From a virus: a stretch of 29,576 nt of DNA. The notes below the pieces were generated by a model. It saw nothing but the letters and a program-made list of their open reading frames with translations, had not been told where the DNA came from and made no database searches. The translations under genes were made by a program, and so were the position numbers. Location of the stretch: the IMG/VR virus record IMGVR_UViG_3300017978_000111, positions 1 to 29,576 of that record; one strand, given 5' to 3'. Below are positions 2,186-29,576 of the stretch, in pieces (position 1 is the stretch's first letter; every line of letters begins with the position of its first letter).

Positions 2186-2376
2186 AAAATACTTTAAGTA
2201 AAAGAATATACACCTGTAAGTGCAAATCCATAGTTGAAGGATATGCTTGGGAAAACGAGCTAACTACGATTCAATTTAAGTGCAATAAGTGTGGTAATTT
2301 TGTAGGCTTTGAGCAAATCAAAAAGAAGCCAATTATACAAATGCCATCAATACGAACACAAACAAAAAACAGATAA
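2182..2376 (+). CDS. zinc-ribbon small protein (64 aa)
   Basis: CKCK...CNKCGN four-Cys arrangement. TAATG overlap with the next gene. Confidence 0.55.
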   Translation: MKNTLSKRIYTCKCKSIVEGYAWENELTTIQFKCNKCGNFVGFEQIKKKPIIQMPSIRTQTKNR

Positions 2377-3536
2377 TGAACATCAACGAAATCAAACCTA
2401 ACCCCAACAATCCAAGAATCATCAAGGATGACAAGTTTAAGAAGCTGGTTAAGTCAATCCAAGACTTTCCTCAAATGCTTGAACTTAGACCTATTGTAAT
2501 AGATGAAAACAATATTGTTTTAGGTGGCAATATGAGGCTAAAGGCTTGTATTGAAGCTGGGTTAAAAGATGTACCTGTAAAACAAGCTAAAGAACTAACC
2601 GAAGAACAAAAGAAGGAATTTATAGTAAAGGATAACTTAGGATATGGTGAATGGGATTGGGATGACTTAGCAAACAATTGGGATGAACAATTACTTACCG
2701 AATGGGGTTTAGATATACCAAACTTTGATGCAACTGTATTAGAGGCAGAAGAAGATGACTTTGCCGTTCCAGATGGCGGAAGCGAAACGGATATTGTCTT
2801 AGGCGATTTATTTGAGATAGGCGAACACAGATTACTTTGTGGGGATAGTACAGATAGCGACCAAGTGGCAAAGCTAATGAATGGACAAAAGGCTGATATG
2901 GTATTTACTGACCCACCTTATAAAATAGAAACTGAAGGAGGATGTAAGGGTAGTATTGGTCAAGGATTAAAAAAGCAAGGGAAAGACATAGAATTTATAG
3001 CAAACTTTGAACCAACTGAATTTTTACAAGTATTGCCATTGATATTTGATAAAAATAAATTAAACGCATACATATTTTGCAACAAGGAATTATTACCAGA
3101 TTATTTAGTATGGGCAAGAGATAGTGGTTATTCATTTAATGTTCTAATATGGAAAAAGCCAAATGCCATTCCAATTGGGGATTCACATAGACCAGATATA
3201 GAATATTTACTTCTATTTAGAAAGTCTGCTATATGGAATAATGGATTAAAGGATGTAAACTATTCAAGATGTTTGGAGTTTGGTAGAGAAACAGGATTGC
3301 ATCCAACAATGAAACCAATAGAATTAATTGCAAATGAAATGAAGATTAGTTCAAACGAAAATAGTTTAGTATTTGATTTCTTCTTAGGTTCTGGTTCAAC
3401 AATGGTAGCTTCGCATCAACTTAAACGCAAATGCTATGGTATGGAATTAGACCCAAAATACTGCCAAGTAATTGTAGACAGGATGAAAAAACTTGACCCA
3501 ACCTTGATAATCAAGAAGAATGGGGTAGCTTTGTAA
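2376..3536 (+). CDS. ParB-like nuclease domain fused to a beta-class N6A/N4C DNA methyltransferase
   Basis: N-terminus IKPNPNNPRII...LGGNMRLKA (ParB N-terminal domain). C-terminus has the catalytic VFTDPPY motif followed later by FDFFLGSGST (AdoMet motif I). This order is typical of beta-class enzymes. Confidence 0.85.
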   Translation: MNINEIKPNPNNPRIIKDDKFKKLVKSIQDFPQMLELRPIVIDENNIVLGGNMRLKACIEAGLKDVPVKQAKELTEEQKKEFIVKDNLGYGEWDWDDLANNWDEQLLTEWGLDIPNFDATVLEAEEDDFAVPDGGSETDIVLGDLFEIGEHRLLCGDSTDSDQVAKLMNGQKADMVFTDPPYKIETEGGCKGSIGQGLKKQGKDIEFIANFEPTEFLQVLPLIFDKNKLNAYIFCNKELLPDYLVWARDSGYSFNVLIWKKPNAIPIGDSHRPDIEYLLLFRKSAIWNNGLKDVNYSRCLEFGRETGLHPTMKPIELIANEMKISSNENSLVFDFFLGSGSTMVASHQLKRKCYGMELDPKYCQVIVDRMKKLDPTLIIKKNGVAL

Positions 3537-3559
3537 AATAGTGAAACAAATGTGAAATT

Positions 3560-3907
3560 ATGGCAAATGAACAGAATTTAACCCCATTTAAGAAAGGACA
3601 AGTAGCAAACCCTAATGGTCGACCAAAAGGTGTGCCTAATAGCAAGACAAGACTATTACGTTTATTGGAGTTGGTTACTAAGGTACGCAACCCAGTAACA
3701 GGCGAAGATGAGGAATTTACAATAGCCGAGCAGTTAGATATGCAAATCATAGCAAAGGCAAGAAAGGGCGATTTAAAGGCTTACGAAATACTATTAGACC
3801 GATTAGAAGGCAGACCTAAACAAACAACCGACATCACCGCAGACATAAAGGGTAATGTGCAAATCACAATAGAACCAGATGCAGATTGTCAACCAATTAA
3901 AGATTAA
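3560..3907 (+). CDS. putative terminase small subunit
   Basis: It sits directly upstream of TerL and overlaps it. Basic N-terminus NLTPFKKGQVANPNGRPKG is common in small-terminase-like proteins. Confidence 0.55.
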   Translation: MANEQNLTPFKKGQVANPNGRPKGVPNSKTRLLRLLELVTKVRNPVTGEDEEFTIAEQLDMQIIAKARKGDLKAYEILLDRLEGRPKQTTDITADIKGNVQITIEPDADCQPIKD

Positions 3908-5045
3908 GGCTACTCCAGTCTTTTATGCCAATAAAAAGGCATACGAGGATGGGTATCCGATAATATGCAATGAAGGTGGGTCAAGGTCAAGCAAAAGTTA
4001 TTCCGTTGTTCAGTTGCTAATCCACATAGCTTTAACCAACCCTAATACAAGAATTTCGTGCGTATCACATTCCTTACCACATATTAAGCGAGGTGTTTAT
4101 AGGGATTTCAAAAACATATTGGAGCAATGGAACATTTGGGATGAAAAGGATTTTAGGTACACGGATTTTATTTATACGTTTAAGAACGGCTCATACATTG
4201 AGTTATTTGGATTAGAAGACCCAGATAAAGCAAAAGGACCAGCAAGGGATATACTATTCGTAAATGAGGCAAACCTAATTAGTAAGGCTTTATTTGACCA
4301 GCTTTTAATTCGTACAACAGGACAAGCATTCTTAGACTGGAATCCAGCCGACTTTATTTCTTGGGTATATGAGGTAGCAGATAACCCAAATAACAAGCGC
4401 ATCCATTCTACCTACCTAAACAATATCTCAAACCTTAGTGAAAGCCAAATAAAAAACATTGAGCAATACAAGGACTTACCGGATGACTTTATGTGGAAGG
4501 TTTACGGATTAGGTGAACGAGGGTCAGCAAAGGAAATTATTTATACTCAATGGAAGCAATATGACCAAGCACCAAATGGGGATGTGTTTTACGGATTAGA
4601 CTTTGGTTATGTTCACCCAGCTGCTTTAGTTAAGGTTACGCACTATGAAGGACAAAACTACTTTGAGGAAATAGTTTACCAAAGCGGACTGACTTTAAGC
4701 GACCTATCAAGACTGATTAAAGAAAAGCTACCAGAACGAGCTACAATCTATGCCGATGCAGCCGAGCCTAAGTCTATTGAGGAACTTTACCGACAAGGAT
4801 TTAATATCAAACCAGCGCAAAAGGATGTATGGGCAGGAATAGTTAAAATGAAATCTTATCCAATAAACTTGCACTACAATAGCAAAAACCTAAGAAGGGA
4901 GTTTATGTCTTACAAATGGAAAAAGGATAAAAACGATAACGTAATTGAAGAACCTGTAAAGGCAAATGATGACTTGATGGATGCTTGTAGGTATGCCGTG
5001 TTTACACATTTAACCAAGCCTAAATTTGAGGTGTCGGTATTTTAG
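3879..5045 (+). CDS. terL: terminase large subunit (PBSX-like family)
   Basis: Walker-A-like CNEGGSRSSKSYS, FVNEAN Walker-B-like segment, and a C-terminal nuclease-like region (DDLMDACRYA). Size and position fit. Confidence 0.85.
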   Translation: MQIVNQLKIKATPVFYANKKAYEDGYPIICNEGGSRSSKSYSVVQLLIHIALTNPNTRISCVSHSLPHIKRGVYRDFKNILEQWNIWDEKDFRYTDFIYTFKNGSYIELFGLEDPDKAKGPARDILFVNEANLISKALFDQLLIRTTGQAFLDWNPADFISWVYEVADNPNNKRIHSTYLNNISNLSESQIKNIEQYKDLPDDFMWKVYGLGERGSAKEIIYTQWKQYDQAPNGDVFYGLDFGYVHPAALVKVTHYEGQNYFEEIVYQSGLTLSDLSRLIKEKLPERATIYADAAEPKSIEELYRQGFNIKPAQKDVWAGIVKMKSYPINLHYNSKNLRREFMSYKWKKDKNDNVIEEPVKANDDLMDACRYAVFTHLTKPKFEVSVF

Positions 5046-11473: not shown

Positions 11474-11923
11474 ATGGCAGAAACAAAAGTAAGCGGTAGA
11501 GATTATATCCTCTTAGCTGACATAAACAATGATGGTACATTCAAGCCTGTTGCTTGTTTGACTACAAACTCTTTAACATCAACTAATGACACAATAGATG
11601 CAACATCTAAGTGTGGCAACGAGTACACTCCAGCACCTTCTTTTTCTCAATCTTTTGAGTGTGAAGGTTTTGCAATTGATGAAACAGGTACACCATCTAA
11701 AGATAGCTACCAACAATTATATACTGCACACGCTGCTAAGACTTTATTCGCAATTAAGATGGGTAAAGCAACTCCAGCTGCAGGTGATATCACTTATGGT
11801 GGTGCTGGTTCTTTAGTGTTTATTAGCGATTTCGGTGTAACTGCTGACGATAAAGATGATGTTAAATTTACTGCAACTTTCGTAGTAAGTGTTCCTCCTA
11901 TTGCACAAACTGAAACTGTATAA
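11474..11923 (+). CDS. major tail (tube) protein, TP901-1/phi13-like
   Basis: GRDYILLADINNDGTFKPVACLTTNSLTSTNDTIDATSKCG...FECEGFAI. 149 aa, upstream of the G/GT chaperone pair. Confidence 0.7.
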   Translation: MAETKVSGRDYILLADINNDGTFKPVACLTTNSLTSTNDTIDATSKCGNEYTPAPSFSQSFECEGFAIDETGTPSKDSYQQLYTAHAAKTLFAIKMGKATPAAGDITYGGAGSLVFISDFGVTADDKDDVKFTATFVVSVPPIAQTETV

Positions 11924-28020: not shown

Positions 28021-28212
28021 ATGAGCCAAAACCAACAAATCGCAAACTACCTAAATAAGGGTAGAAAATTAACCCCAATTGATGCTTTAAACAAGTTCGG
28101 ATGCTTTAGATTAGCAGCACGAATTGCTGACCTTAGAAATGATGGTATGAACATAAAAACAACCATTGTTAAGCTGAAAAATAAGAAGCAAGTTGCTCAA
28201 TATTCAATATGA
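28021..28212 (+). CDS. helix-turn-helix protein (HTH_39-like)
   Basis: LTPIDALNKFGCFRLAARIADLRNDGMNIKT matches the small phage HTH family pattern (..rLaaRI.dLr..G..I.t). Confidence 0.6.
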   Translation: MSQNQQIANYLNKGRKLTPIDALNKFGCFRLAARIADLRNDGMNIKTTIVKLKNKKQVAQYSI

Positions 28213-28967
28213 CACACGCATCATTATTTAGTGGAATCGGAGGATTTGACTTAGCAGCGGAATGGATGGGATGGAAAAATCTATTTCATTGCGAATGGAA
28301 TCCATTTGGTCAACAAGTATTAAAACATCATTTCCCAAATTCAATTAGTTACAATGACATTACTAAAACAAACTTCTCTATTCATAGAGGACAAGTCGAC
28401 ATCCTTACAGGAGGATTTCCTTGCCAACCCTACTCAAGTGCAGGAAAAAGACTTGGTAATGAAGATGAACGCCATCTCTGGCCAGAAATGCTTAGAACAA
28501 TTCAAGAAGTTCAACCACGTTGGGTTGTGGGCGAAAACGTTCTCGGACTTACTAATTGGAATGGGGGATTGGTCTTCAACGAGGTGCAAGTTGACTTGGA
28601 AGCTAAAGGGTACGAAGTACAAGCGTTTATACTTCCAGCTTGTGCCAAAAACGCACCACACCGAAGGGATAGAGTTTGGTTTGTTGCCTACTCCAACCAA
28701 ATCGGATTTTCAACCAAGATGGCAAACGGAAAACTGGGAGGGGAACTCGGATTTACCAAGTGTAATCAACCAAATGTATGGGACACATTCACAACTGAAT
28801 CCGCTATTTGTGGAAAAGATGATGGGCTTCCCACCGAATTGGACTTTATCAGTATTTCAAAATACCGAAAAGAATCTTTAATGGCATATGGAAACGCAAT
28901 AGTTCCACAAGTTGCTTATGAGATTTTTAAGGCTATAAATGAATTTGAATTAATGGTAAATAAGTAG
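28209..28967 (+). CDS. dcm: DNA (cytosine-5)-methyltransferase, short form
   Basis: Motif I LFSGIGGFDLA, IV GGFPCQPYS, VI VGENV, VIII APHRRDRVWFVA, X YGNAIVPQV. There is no recognisable motif IX or TRD in this frame. Confidence 0.85.
   Translation: MTHASLFSGIGGFDLAAEWMGWKNLFHCEWNPFGQQVLKHHFPNSISYNDITKTNFSIHRGQVDILTGGFPCQPYSSAGKRLGNEDERHLWPEMLRTIQEVQPRWVVGENVLGLTNWNGGLVFNEVQVDLEAKGYEVQAFILPACAKNAPHRRDRVWFVAYSNQIGFSTKMANGKLGGELGFTKCNQPNVWDTFTTESAICGKDDGLPTELDFISISKYRKESLMAYGNAIVPQVAYEIFKAINEFELMVNK
28354..28881 (+). CDS. 175-codon ORF nested in the +1 frame of dcm, carrying LLPTPT and MGFPPNWT (motif IX-like) motifs
   Basis: Open from 28324 to TAA at 28879..28881. GLLPTPTKSD at 28678..28707 and SQLNPLFVEKMMGFPPNWT at 28789..28845. 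It is the longest same-strand alternative-frame ORF in the track by more than 2-fold. Whether it is translated is unproven. Confidence 0.5.
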   Translation: MTLLKQTSLFIEDKSTSLQEDFLANPTQVQEKDLVMKMNAISGQKCLEQFKKFNHVGLWAKTFSDLLIGMGDWSSTRCKLTWKLKGTKYKRLYFQLVPKTHHTEGIEFGLLPTPTKSDFQPRWQTENWEGNSDLPSVINQMYGTHSQLNPLFVEKMMGFPPNWTLSVFQNTEKNL

Positions 28968-28986
28968 TATTTTTGTACAAAGGATG

Positions 28987-28998
28987 TAGGATATCCTA
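28987..28998. repeat. perfect 12-bp palindrome TAGGATATCCTA with a third half-site downstream
   Basis: taggatatccta at 28987..28998. atcctac recurs at 29032..29038 (reverse complement of gtaggat at 28986..28992). Lies in the gap upstream of the replication gene. Confidence 0.6.
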
Positions 28999-29011
28999 AC
29001 TAAAACTTATT

Positions 29012-29064
29012 GGCTCAAAGCTGAAACCCTAATCCTACTGGGGTGGATGCCGAGAGCCTTTTTT
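29012..29064 (+). terminator. candidate terminator / structured element after dcm
   Basis: ggctc (29012..29016) pairs with gagcc (29054..29058). Inner gc/gc and atcc/ggat pairings. T6 at 29059..29064. The hairpin is long and imperfect. Confidence 0.45.
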
Positions 29065-29069
29065 ATTTT

Positions 29070-29576
29070 ATGGCTAAAGACCCAGCGGTGTTATTTTACA
29101 CAAGCGATTTTCTTAGTGGCACATTTACAATGGATAATGAACAGGTTGGCAAATACATTAGACTTTTGTGCTTACAACATCAAAAAGGCAAATTAAGTGA
29201 AAAGGATATGCTAAGCATATGTAAAGCATATGATAATGAGATTTGGGATAAATTTAAAGTTGAAGATGGTTTATACTACAATGAAAGAATGTTTAATGAA
29301 ACCATTAGAAGGCAAAAATTTAGTGAAAGTAGGCGAAATAACGCTAAATCACCTAAAAAAGAAAGCACTAGCGAAGCATATGCTGAGCATATGGAAACTG
29401 AAACTGAAAATAGAACTATAACTATAAATGAAAATATAAATATAGATTTTGAATGGTTTTGGAATGAATATGATAAAAAGGTAGGGGATAAGCAAAAGTT
29501 AAAAAAGAAGTGGAATAAATTAACCGATGAAGAAAGGCAAAATGCAATGAATTATCTTGAACTTTACAAACAGTCA
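29070..29576 (+). CDS. DUF1376 (YdaU-like) replication-associated protein, N-terminal part (continues across the junction to 199)
   Basis: MAKDPAVLFYTSDFLSGTFTMDNEQVGKYIRLLCLQHQKG is the DUF1376 signature. No stop before the window end, and the frame continues at 56..199. C-terminal FEWFWNEYDKKVGDKQKLKKKW...ETFINNKSWNDE is a motif common in phage replication organisers. Confidence 0.75.
   Translation, partial: MAKDPAVLFYTSDFLSGTFTMDNEQVGKYIRLLCLQHQKGKLSEKDMLSICKAYDNEIWDKFKVEDGLYYNERMFNETIRRQKFSESRRNNAKSPKKESTSEAYAEHMETETENRTITINENINIDFEWFWNEYDKKVGDKQKLKKKWNKLTDEERQNAMNYLELYKQS
29522..29576. repeat. terminal direct repeat, copy 2 (identical to 1..55)
   Basis: Exact 55/55 match to the window start. 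This fits a circular contig closed by an assembler k-mer overlap, or terminal redundancy. Confidence 0.95.

Follow-up and report, generated by a model that had tools for sequence, protein, structure and literature searches.

What does a phage methyltransferase gene encode when it can be read in two frames? The window analysed here comprises all 29,576 nucleotides (nt) of the viral record IMGVR_UViG_3300017978_000111, a tailed-phage contig of 34% GC that encodes a terminase, a portal protein, a tail fibre, RecT and a ParB-fused methyltransferase. Towards its 3' end lies a dcm-type DNA (cytosine-5) methyltransferase (C5 methyltransferase) gene whose catalytic motifs and motif X are read in one frame (A) and whose motif IX is read in a nested +1 frame (B). 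An initial annotation, made from the letters alone, had noticed this and offered three models: a nested gene supplying a recognition segment and motif IX in trans, a double frameshift joining the two frames, and a decayed or mis-assembled gene. The analysis below favours the first, which is supported by a large protein family, a conserved overlap and suppressed synonymous variation. The locus probably encodes a heterodimeric orphan phage C5 methyltransferase made from two nested, separately translated genes, here called alpha and beta; no nuclease gene adjoins it. As precedent the annotation had named M.AquI, but M.EcoHK31I is closer, as its beta gene lies wholly inside its alpha gene (PMC2836561). 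The annotated coordinates of both open reading frames (ORFs) and of the motifs all held, and the features on which the argument depends are as follows.

28209..28967, + strand: candidate alpha subunit gene, frame A, 252 amino acids (aa); C5-methyltransferase motifs I-VIII, a disordered linker and a motif X helix
28354..28881, + strand: candidate beta subunit gene, frame B, 175 aa; in the +1 frame of A, open from 28324 and nested entirely in the alpha gene
28224..28244, + strand: motif I, frame A
28410..28436, + strand: motif IV (GGFPCQPYS), frame A
28459..28467, + strand: possible alternative in-frame beta starts, ATG 28459 and ATG 28465 (B Met36 and Met38), just before the constrained, structured part
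28530..28541, + strand: motif VI, frame A
28534..28641, + strand: dual-constraint segment, B residues 61-96 (GDWSSTRCKLTWKLKGTKYKRLYFQLVP), over A residues 109-144 and between motifs VI and VIII
28662..28688, + strand: motif VIII, frame A
28678..28707, + strand: GLLPTPTKSD, the sole LLPTP recognition-like module of beta, frame B
28689..28886, + strand: alpha linker, A residues 161-226; a passenger reading of beta-coding DNA, open and unconserved
28789..28845, + strand: predicted motif IX, SQLNPLFVEKMMGFPPNWT, in beta; DDGLPTELD in the frame-A reading
28890..28913, + strand: motif X (GNAIVPQV), frame A; downstream of the beta stop codon and a confident helix in the structural model

Protein products of the two frames

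Frame A is a clear but incomplete C5 methyltransferase. Its match to PF00145 is confined to residues 1-165 and to the first half of the model (149.1 bits, E = 2.7e-43); it also exceeds the TIGR00675 cutoff of 100.65 (138.5 bits, E = 3.9e-40) and matches the phage methyltransferase family phrog_363 from end to end (E = 1.7e-70). All four motifs expected of the C5 large domain are present, namely I (FxGxGG), IV (PCQ), VI (ENV) and VIII (RxR), and the small domain and motif IX are missing from this polypeptide. The frame-A C-terminus on its own gave no PF00145 match, which bears out the annotated lack of motif IX between motifs VIII and X.

An AlphaFold model of alpha, based on an alignment of 46 homologues, gave the same division. 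The predicted local distance difference test score (pLDDT) is mostly about 90 over residues 1-164 (lower at 74-87 and 146-151), falls to 27-50 over the unstructured residues 165-226, and is again confident in a C-terminal helix (227-250) that holds motif X (85-90 over residues 231-250). M.HhaI and M.HaeIII were the top Foldseek matches (E about 1e-13), aligned over ~165 columns that represent the large domain alone. Across the 46 homologues G228-V235, corresponding to motif X, is invariant. In a 64-locus codon alignment, A codons 157-204 vary freely at all three codon positions, and the linker is nonetheless without a frame-A stop in the great majority of loci, with four exceptions. Alpha has no folded small domain, and the stretch between its motifs VIII and X, variable and disordered, is a passenger in which only the absence of stops is maintained.

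Frame B had no match to Pfam or NCBIfam in family-library scans. It did match phrog_1008, a family labelled 'DNA methyltransferase' (E = 4e-22), and a search of a protein collection clustered at 90% identity found 1919 homologues at E <= 1e-3, most of them 200-300 aa long, without a Pfam domain, named 'hypothetical protein' and starting with M..KQTSLFTE. A profile built from 56 family members matched 17,621 clusters at 50% identity (E <= 1e-3), including 1,688 at E <= 1e-30. Members share a block at B residues 40-100 (W73, C78, W82-K83 and R91-Q95), one or more LLPTPxxxD modules and a C-terminal motif of the form SQLNPxFVxEMMGFPxxWT. Among the 56 members, G109, L110, L111 and T113 of the LLPTP module are invariant or nearly so, and the tail (P167, G171 and E172) is conserved right up to the stop codon of beta. 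The number of LLPTP modules ranged from 0 to 10 in 240 relatives (mode 3, mostly 1-5) and followed beta length (r = 0.83); the window beta has one. Judged by these matches, beta belongs over its full length to a large family for which neither Pfam nor NCBIfam has a model, and the suggestion in the initial annotation that frame B is more than noise is well founded.

The exact alpha sequence is already in the protein collection (P0261), and the nearest beta match there, P0001, is merely 65% identical. P0001, P0025, P0062, P0063 and P0068 begin in frame A (motifs I-IV or I-VI) and change to frame-B sequence at differing points; evidently the frames were fused by different indels or sequencing errors in other contigs. 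Such frame-fused proteins explain why a few beta-family matches carry a PF00145 label.

Motif IX, whose role in C5 enzymes has been described (PMC2836561), was located only in frame B, so that by its sequence beta appears to supply the motif that alpha lacks. With A1-160, B113-165 and A215-252 joined into a composite, PF00145 scored 160 bits instead of 149.1 and a second stretch was matched, and the shorter composite of B109-165 and A215-252 matched positions 276-323 of the model (E = 1.8e-4).

Selection on both reading frames

Over the span of B there are no stop codons in the +1 frame versus 15 in the +2 frame. When the synonymous codons of A were resampled from the codon usage of the window, the +1 frame acquired 10.2 stops on average and none of 20,000 trials was stop-free; permuting A's own synonymous codons gave a mean of 5.4 stops and a probability of 5e-5 for zero stops. 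The runner-up among same-strand nested alternative-frame ORFs in the window is 72 aa long (11598..11816, +1 frame), exactly as annotated. This smaller ORF sits within a 149-aa ORF at 11474..11923.

Selection was assessed in the 64-locus codon alignment from position-wise diversity in 12-codon windows. A codons 1-108, including the overlap with B residues 1-60, vary in the way normal for frame A (third-position diversity 0.32-0.51). Over A codons 109-144, which underlie B 61-96, third-position diversity drops from 0.38-0.51 to 0.26, 0.13 and 0.14 in successive windows, and at A codons 205-216, which underlie motif IX of B, the pattern switches to frame-B coding, with B's third position being the most variable. 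Synonymous diversity, counted only at conserved, degenerate A residues and compared with A-only regions, was as follows.

A-only region: 0.46 (n = 47)
B residues 1-60: 0.38 (n = 47, p = 0.03)
B residues 61-96: 0.16 (n = 28, p = 1e-7)
Motif IX: 0.064 (n = 11, p = 6e-7)

The check on frame-A synonymous variation that had been proposed with the nested-gene model thus came out in its favour: variation is suppressed exactly where B is conserved. Similarity to the B family was examined with 10 loci that had been left out of the building of the hidden Markov model (HMM), each with 100 synonymous permutations of A. The real +1 translations scored 35-290 bits against the B HMM and the permutations about 4-11 standard deviations lower; in 10/10 loci the real score exceeded the maximum of the 100 permutations, and permuted sequences averaged 4-8 stops. 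Frame-B similarity is therefore not a by-product of the A protein, since synonymous permutation of A ruins both the open B frame and its family resemblance. Both ORFs are under purifying selection, each in its own frame.

Selection on B falls chiefly on residues 61-96, on the LLPTP module and on motif IX. The initial annotation needs correcting in that the first ~60 residues are only weakly constrained. We rejected conservation of the first ~40 residues of beta as evidence for it, as this is largely passive. The conserved string QEDFLANPTQ, for example, results from reading the invariant codons of motif IV in the +1 frame and lies where the codon-position pattern is that of frame A.

These results also bear on recoding, in which a +1 shift after motif VIII (about 28680-28690) and a -1 shift between motif IX and the B stop (28846-28880) would yield one polypeptide. 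Such a composite reading is collinear with canonical C5 methyltransferases and is the better PF00145 match. It would not, however, account for the ATG and the openness of frame B or for selection on that frame at residues 61-96, well upstream of the +1 site, nor for the conservation of the B tail up to its own stop, nor for a frame A that stays open across a linker of 60-190 codons that recoding would never read. No conserved slippery site of the kind used in programmed ribosomal frameshifting was found at the frame change: an X_XXY_YYZ heptamer occurs in the -1 interval in 4/62 loci, the window not among them, and the +1 position has no stop or rare-codon context, frame A running on open. M.EcoHK31I lost all activity when the beta start codons were silently removed, and alpha and beta supplied as separate genes from separate plasmids restored full methylation (PMC2836561; PMC3404938). 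We regard the double frameshift as very improbable.

Breadth, variants and surroundings of the nested pair

All 80 viral loci retrieved through frame B have the same register, with B in the +1 frame of A (80/80). Identity ranges from 49 to 93% for A and from 40 to 94% for B, and both ORFs are complete in almost all. A spans 250-380 aa, reflecting a linker that differs in length among loci, and B spans 165-310 aa; since insertions lie in the middle region that both use, A and B change length together. As a safeguard against ascertainment bias, 50 loci were collected from cellular genomes with frame A only, along with 3 phage records from a tblastn search with frame A, and 52/53 of these contain an uninterrupted +1 ORF that matches a B HMM. 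The bacteria in this set include Bacteroidota, Beta-, Gamma- and Alphaproteobacteria, Phycisphaerales (Planctomycetota), Chlamydiia, Desulfobacterales, Bdellovibrionales, Actinomycetes and Saccharibacteria, and the phages are Paenibacillus phage Lily, Lactobacillus phage Lc-Nu and a mycobacteriophage. Plasmids of Bacillus, Nostoc and Leptospira also carry the nested arrangement. The guess that the two-frame arrangement is widespread was thus correct across many phyla.

Annotation has mostly passed this pair by. Standard pipelines call alpha alone at the window locus, and the Prokaryotic Genome Annotation Pipeline (PGAP) leaves the nested ORF uncalled in both E. coli prophage loci that we examined. 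One of these, a dcm gene (L134:2390-3127, PT62, WP_230069165.1) for which RefSeq annotates alpha alone, has a +1 ORF along the whole gene with GLWPTAKA and QLNPQWVEWFMGWPIGWTEL. The other (L135:2366-3127) carries a pseudogene annotation with an internal stop, and there its +1 frame is interrupted too. The pair turns out to be widespread and mostly missed, and literature searches for a broad nested-methyltransferase family found no description of one, EcoHK31I being mentioned in only seven open-access papers. Whether nesting is the standard design in a very large clade, the 'short' C5 methyltransferases of phages and prophages across bacterial phyla, is a larger claim, which we rate at just short of an even chance.

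Conservation on this scale refutes the model of decay or assembly artefact, in which a canonical gene would have suffered two compensating indels and frame B would be meaningless. Frame-fusing or truncating changes do occur, in the proteins P0001, P0025, P0062 and P0063 and in the loci L002, L036, L046 and L052. The two-frame arrangement is nevertheless intact in >100 independent loci, with alpha identity down to 36%; frame B is under measurable purifying selection; and an open +1 frame, given the A protein sequence, has a chance of 5e-5 or less. The probability that we leave to this explanation is negligible.

Less conserved is the junction at the B stop. The initial annotation had drawn attention to TAATG, where the stop of B overlaps an in-frame ATG of A, and this pentamer was found only in the window and in L001-L008, other loci having TAGTA, TAGTT or TAAAA. 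Being unconserved, the junction is best taken as a coincidence, and we rejected it as a re-initiation signal.

Several relatives depart from the nested form. In L136 (L136:2676-4983) alpha stops shortly after motif VIII (stop at 3428), and a beta of 660 aa (3001-4983) begins inside alpha with a 428-nt overlap; a single frame of this beta holds about ten LLPTP modules together with motifs IX and X. By its motif layout this locus is an M.AquI-like split that still overlaps. L130 (L130:1965-3698, Armatimonadota) has no +1 ORF and encodes a single 577-aa chain in which motifs I-VIII and X are followed by in-frame PTP-type modules and a C-terminal motif IX, NPDWQEILMGFPPGWT; it is a natural permuted alpha-beta fusion. 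The altered order of modules in L130 and L136 speaks further against recoding, and these rearranged forms mark beta as a separable module. Finally, an extra stand-alone beta-like ORF of 195 aa (B HMM E about 5e-23) lies directly downstream of the alpha/beta pair in genomes of Sphingobacterium and Edaphocola (L114:2954-3541 and L115:2954-3541). Together, the AquI-like overlapping split, the nested form and the permuted fusion could document how a gene becomes overprinted.

The consequences depend partly on whether alpha needs beta. If it does, thousands of "dcm" genes annotated as complete enzymes would encode just the catalytic half, and recoding the codons of the annotated ORF for expression in another host would eliminate the second subunit unnoticed. 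In any case the two genes overlap on the same strand by >500 nt, the overlap is deeply conserved and selection can be measured in both frames; natural variants without the overlap, or with the parts in another order, can be set beside it. If the nested form does prove to be a standard architecture, few long same-strand gene overlaps known from prokaryotic viruses would be as widespread.

Around the pair, a 63-aa winged-helix protein is encoded directly upstream of alpha (28021..28212; PF14090 HTH_39, E = 4.5e-15), and its stop codon and the start codon of alpha overlap in the bases ATGA; this protein could regulate the methyltransferase or act as its partner. At 2376..3536 the phage encodes another DNA methyltransferase, whose N-terminal domain is ParB-like (phrog_498, E = 2.5e-83). 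Between the methyltransferase gene and a gene starting at 29073, which has a weak match to a primosomal protein (phrog_9327, E = 3.8e-7), two stem-loops are followed by a T-run (28981..29065). The second stem (GGCUC...GAGCC) is terminator-like; its fold is non-significant (z = -1.41) and the terminator scan made no call there. Scanning for terminators and promoters around the methyltransferase gene gave no signal above shuffled background.

The proposed enzyme and known two-subunit systems

We propose that alpha, translated from 28209, would provide the large domain for S-adenosylmethionine binding and catalysis (motifs I-VIII), a roughly 60-residue unstructured linker that is the out-of-frame reading of beta-coding DNA, and the motif X helix. 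Beta would be translated independently from an internal start, either ATG 28354 or Met36/Met38 at 28459/28465. Its predicted layout begins with an N-terminal tail under little constraint, followed by a conserved helix-helix-hairpin domain (about residues 40-100), a single LLPTP module and then motif IX. Through residues about 40-100, acting as an association domain, beta would dock on alpha and provide in trans the small DNA-recognition domain that alpha is without, and the assembled enzyme would methylate phage DNA, presumably protecting it against host restriction. We infer independent initiation of beta, its association with alpha through the N-terminal domain and the need for both chains to complete the enzyme from the fit to the M.EcoHK31I precedent.

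Some observations weigh against this proposal. The AlphaFold model of beta, from the 56-sequence alignment, has low confidence (pLDDT 56), Foldseek against the PDB returned nothing below E = 4, and a profile search of PDB sequences with beta gave no matches. With neither a structural nor a PDB sequence match, the assignment of beta as the small domain draws on its motifs and on the Pfam composites, of which the shorter (B109-165 with A215-252) scored 21.5 bits, just below the 22-bit PF00145 cutoff. The position of the beta start is not conserved (offsets of +145, +175, +130 and others), and the window has no evident ribosome-binding signal for beta. In addition, published descriptions of M.EcoHK31I assign its recognition domain to alpha, and the sole recognition-like element of the window pair, LLPTP, is in beta.

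The beta model is partly structured. Helices are predicted at residues 40-51, 58-70 and 134-157, with a hairpin at 80-98; the selected residues 61-96 form a helix end and beta-hairpin (pLDDT about 62-72), and residues 1-39 are below 50 and weakly constrained. A partial structure of this kind is as expected for a subunit that folds on its partner. Paenibacillus phage Lily and Lactobacillus phage Lc-Nu both have a methionine equivalent to B Met36/Met38 as well.

A different division of labour, in which alpha would be sufficient and beta, although real and conserved, would alter its specificity, regulate it or have a separate anti-defence role, seems unlikely to us. Alpha has every catalytic motif and motif X, the variable number of LLPTP modules (mostly 1-5, up to 10) suits a specificity adaptor, and L114 and L115 carry their extra beta-like ORF. 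However, canonical C5 enzymes need the small domain for DNA binding and recognition, and alpha has neither a folded small domain nor motif IX. Beta is also present in 52/53 of the loci retrieved through A, and the alpha subunit of M.EcoHK31I is inactive by itself (PMC2836561).

M.EcoHK31I (E. coli HK31; recognition sequence YGGCCR; Lee, Kam and Shaw 1995) was shown experimentally to consist of two polypeptides in 1995 (PMC2836561; PMC3404938). The window pair shares its nesting, with the beta ORF inside the alpha ORF in a different frame; this likeness is one of architecture and was compared by published description. Deletions from the N-terminus of M.EcoHK31I beta weaken association (PMC2836561; PMC3404938), and in the window, likewise, the first part of beta would be dispensable or serve association, with internal Met codons usable as starts. 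Unlike M.EcoHK31I, which is part of a restriction-modification system, the window enzyme is a phage orphan, and its alpha has a disordered, unconserved linker between motifs VIII and X in place of the recognition domain of M.EcoHK31I alpha. When 5,426 E. coli genomes were searched by blastn with a homologue from Proteobacteria as query, the only matches were of 71 nt, in prophage dcm genes that share the architecture and are not known to be M.EcoHK31I.

The resemblance to M.AquI (CYCGRG) is more distant. That enzyme is split between large and small domains, as the window enzyme would be, and is active only as alpha plus beta (PMC3404938). Motifs IX and X are both on its beta, and no nesting of its genes is described (PMC3404938), whereas the window has motif X on alpha and a beta gene lying inside alpha in the +1 frame. 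The M.AquI layout, with IX and X on beta and alpha ending in the variable region, is found in the relative L136 and not in the window.

Among phages, the pair LILY_62/LILY_63 of phage Lily (Paenibacillus larvae) has the same nested +1 layout, with LILY_63 annotated as 'g62 internal gene'. Lily alpha is 37% identical to frame A of the window and the Lily beta ORF matches the B HMM at E = 6e-27. Unlike the window, Lily has a Firmicute host and a Shine-Dalgarno-like element for beta, AGAGGTG, 10 nt upstream of its ATG. Lily beta is annotated as a hypothetical protein, and our literature search found no functional study of it.

The Bacillus phage enzymes M.SPRI and M.Phi3TI are multispecific and carry tandem recognition modules in frame within a single polypeptide. 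The tandem LLPTP modules of beta relatives (1-10) resemble these by description, and the window beta differs in having one module that is separate from the catalytic chain. If nesting is indeed a standard design, beta would be a specificity subunit of modular build, and its 1-10 tandem modules could make protection multispecific.

As late as 2012, M.EcoHK31I and M.AquI were still listed as exceptions among monomeric C5 enzymes (PMC3404938). The nested architecture is thus already known from M.EcoHK31I, some phage records annotate the nested ORF, and the window pair adds a member; the breadth of the arrangement and its structural variants are the interesting part, and the locus and its relatives suggest a large natural family built as two-subunit C5 enzymes rather than mere exceptions.

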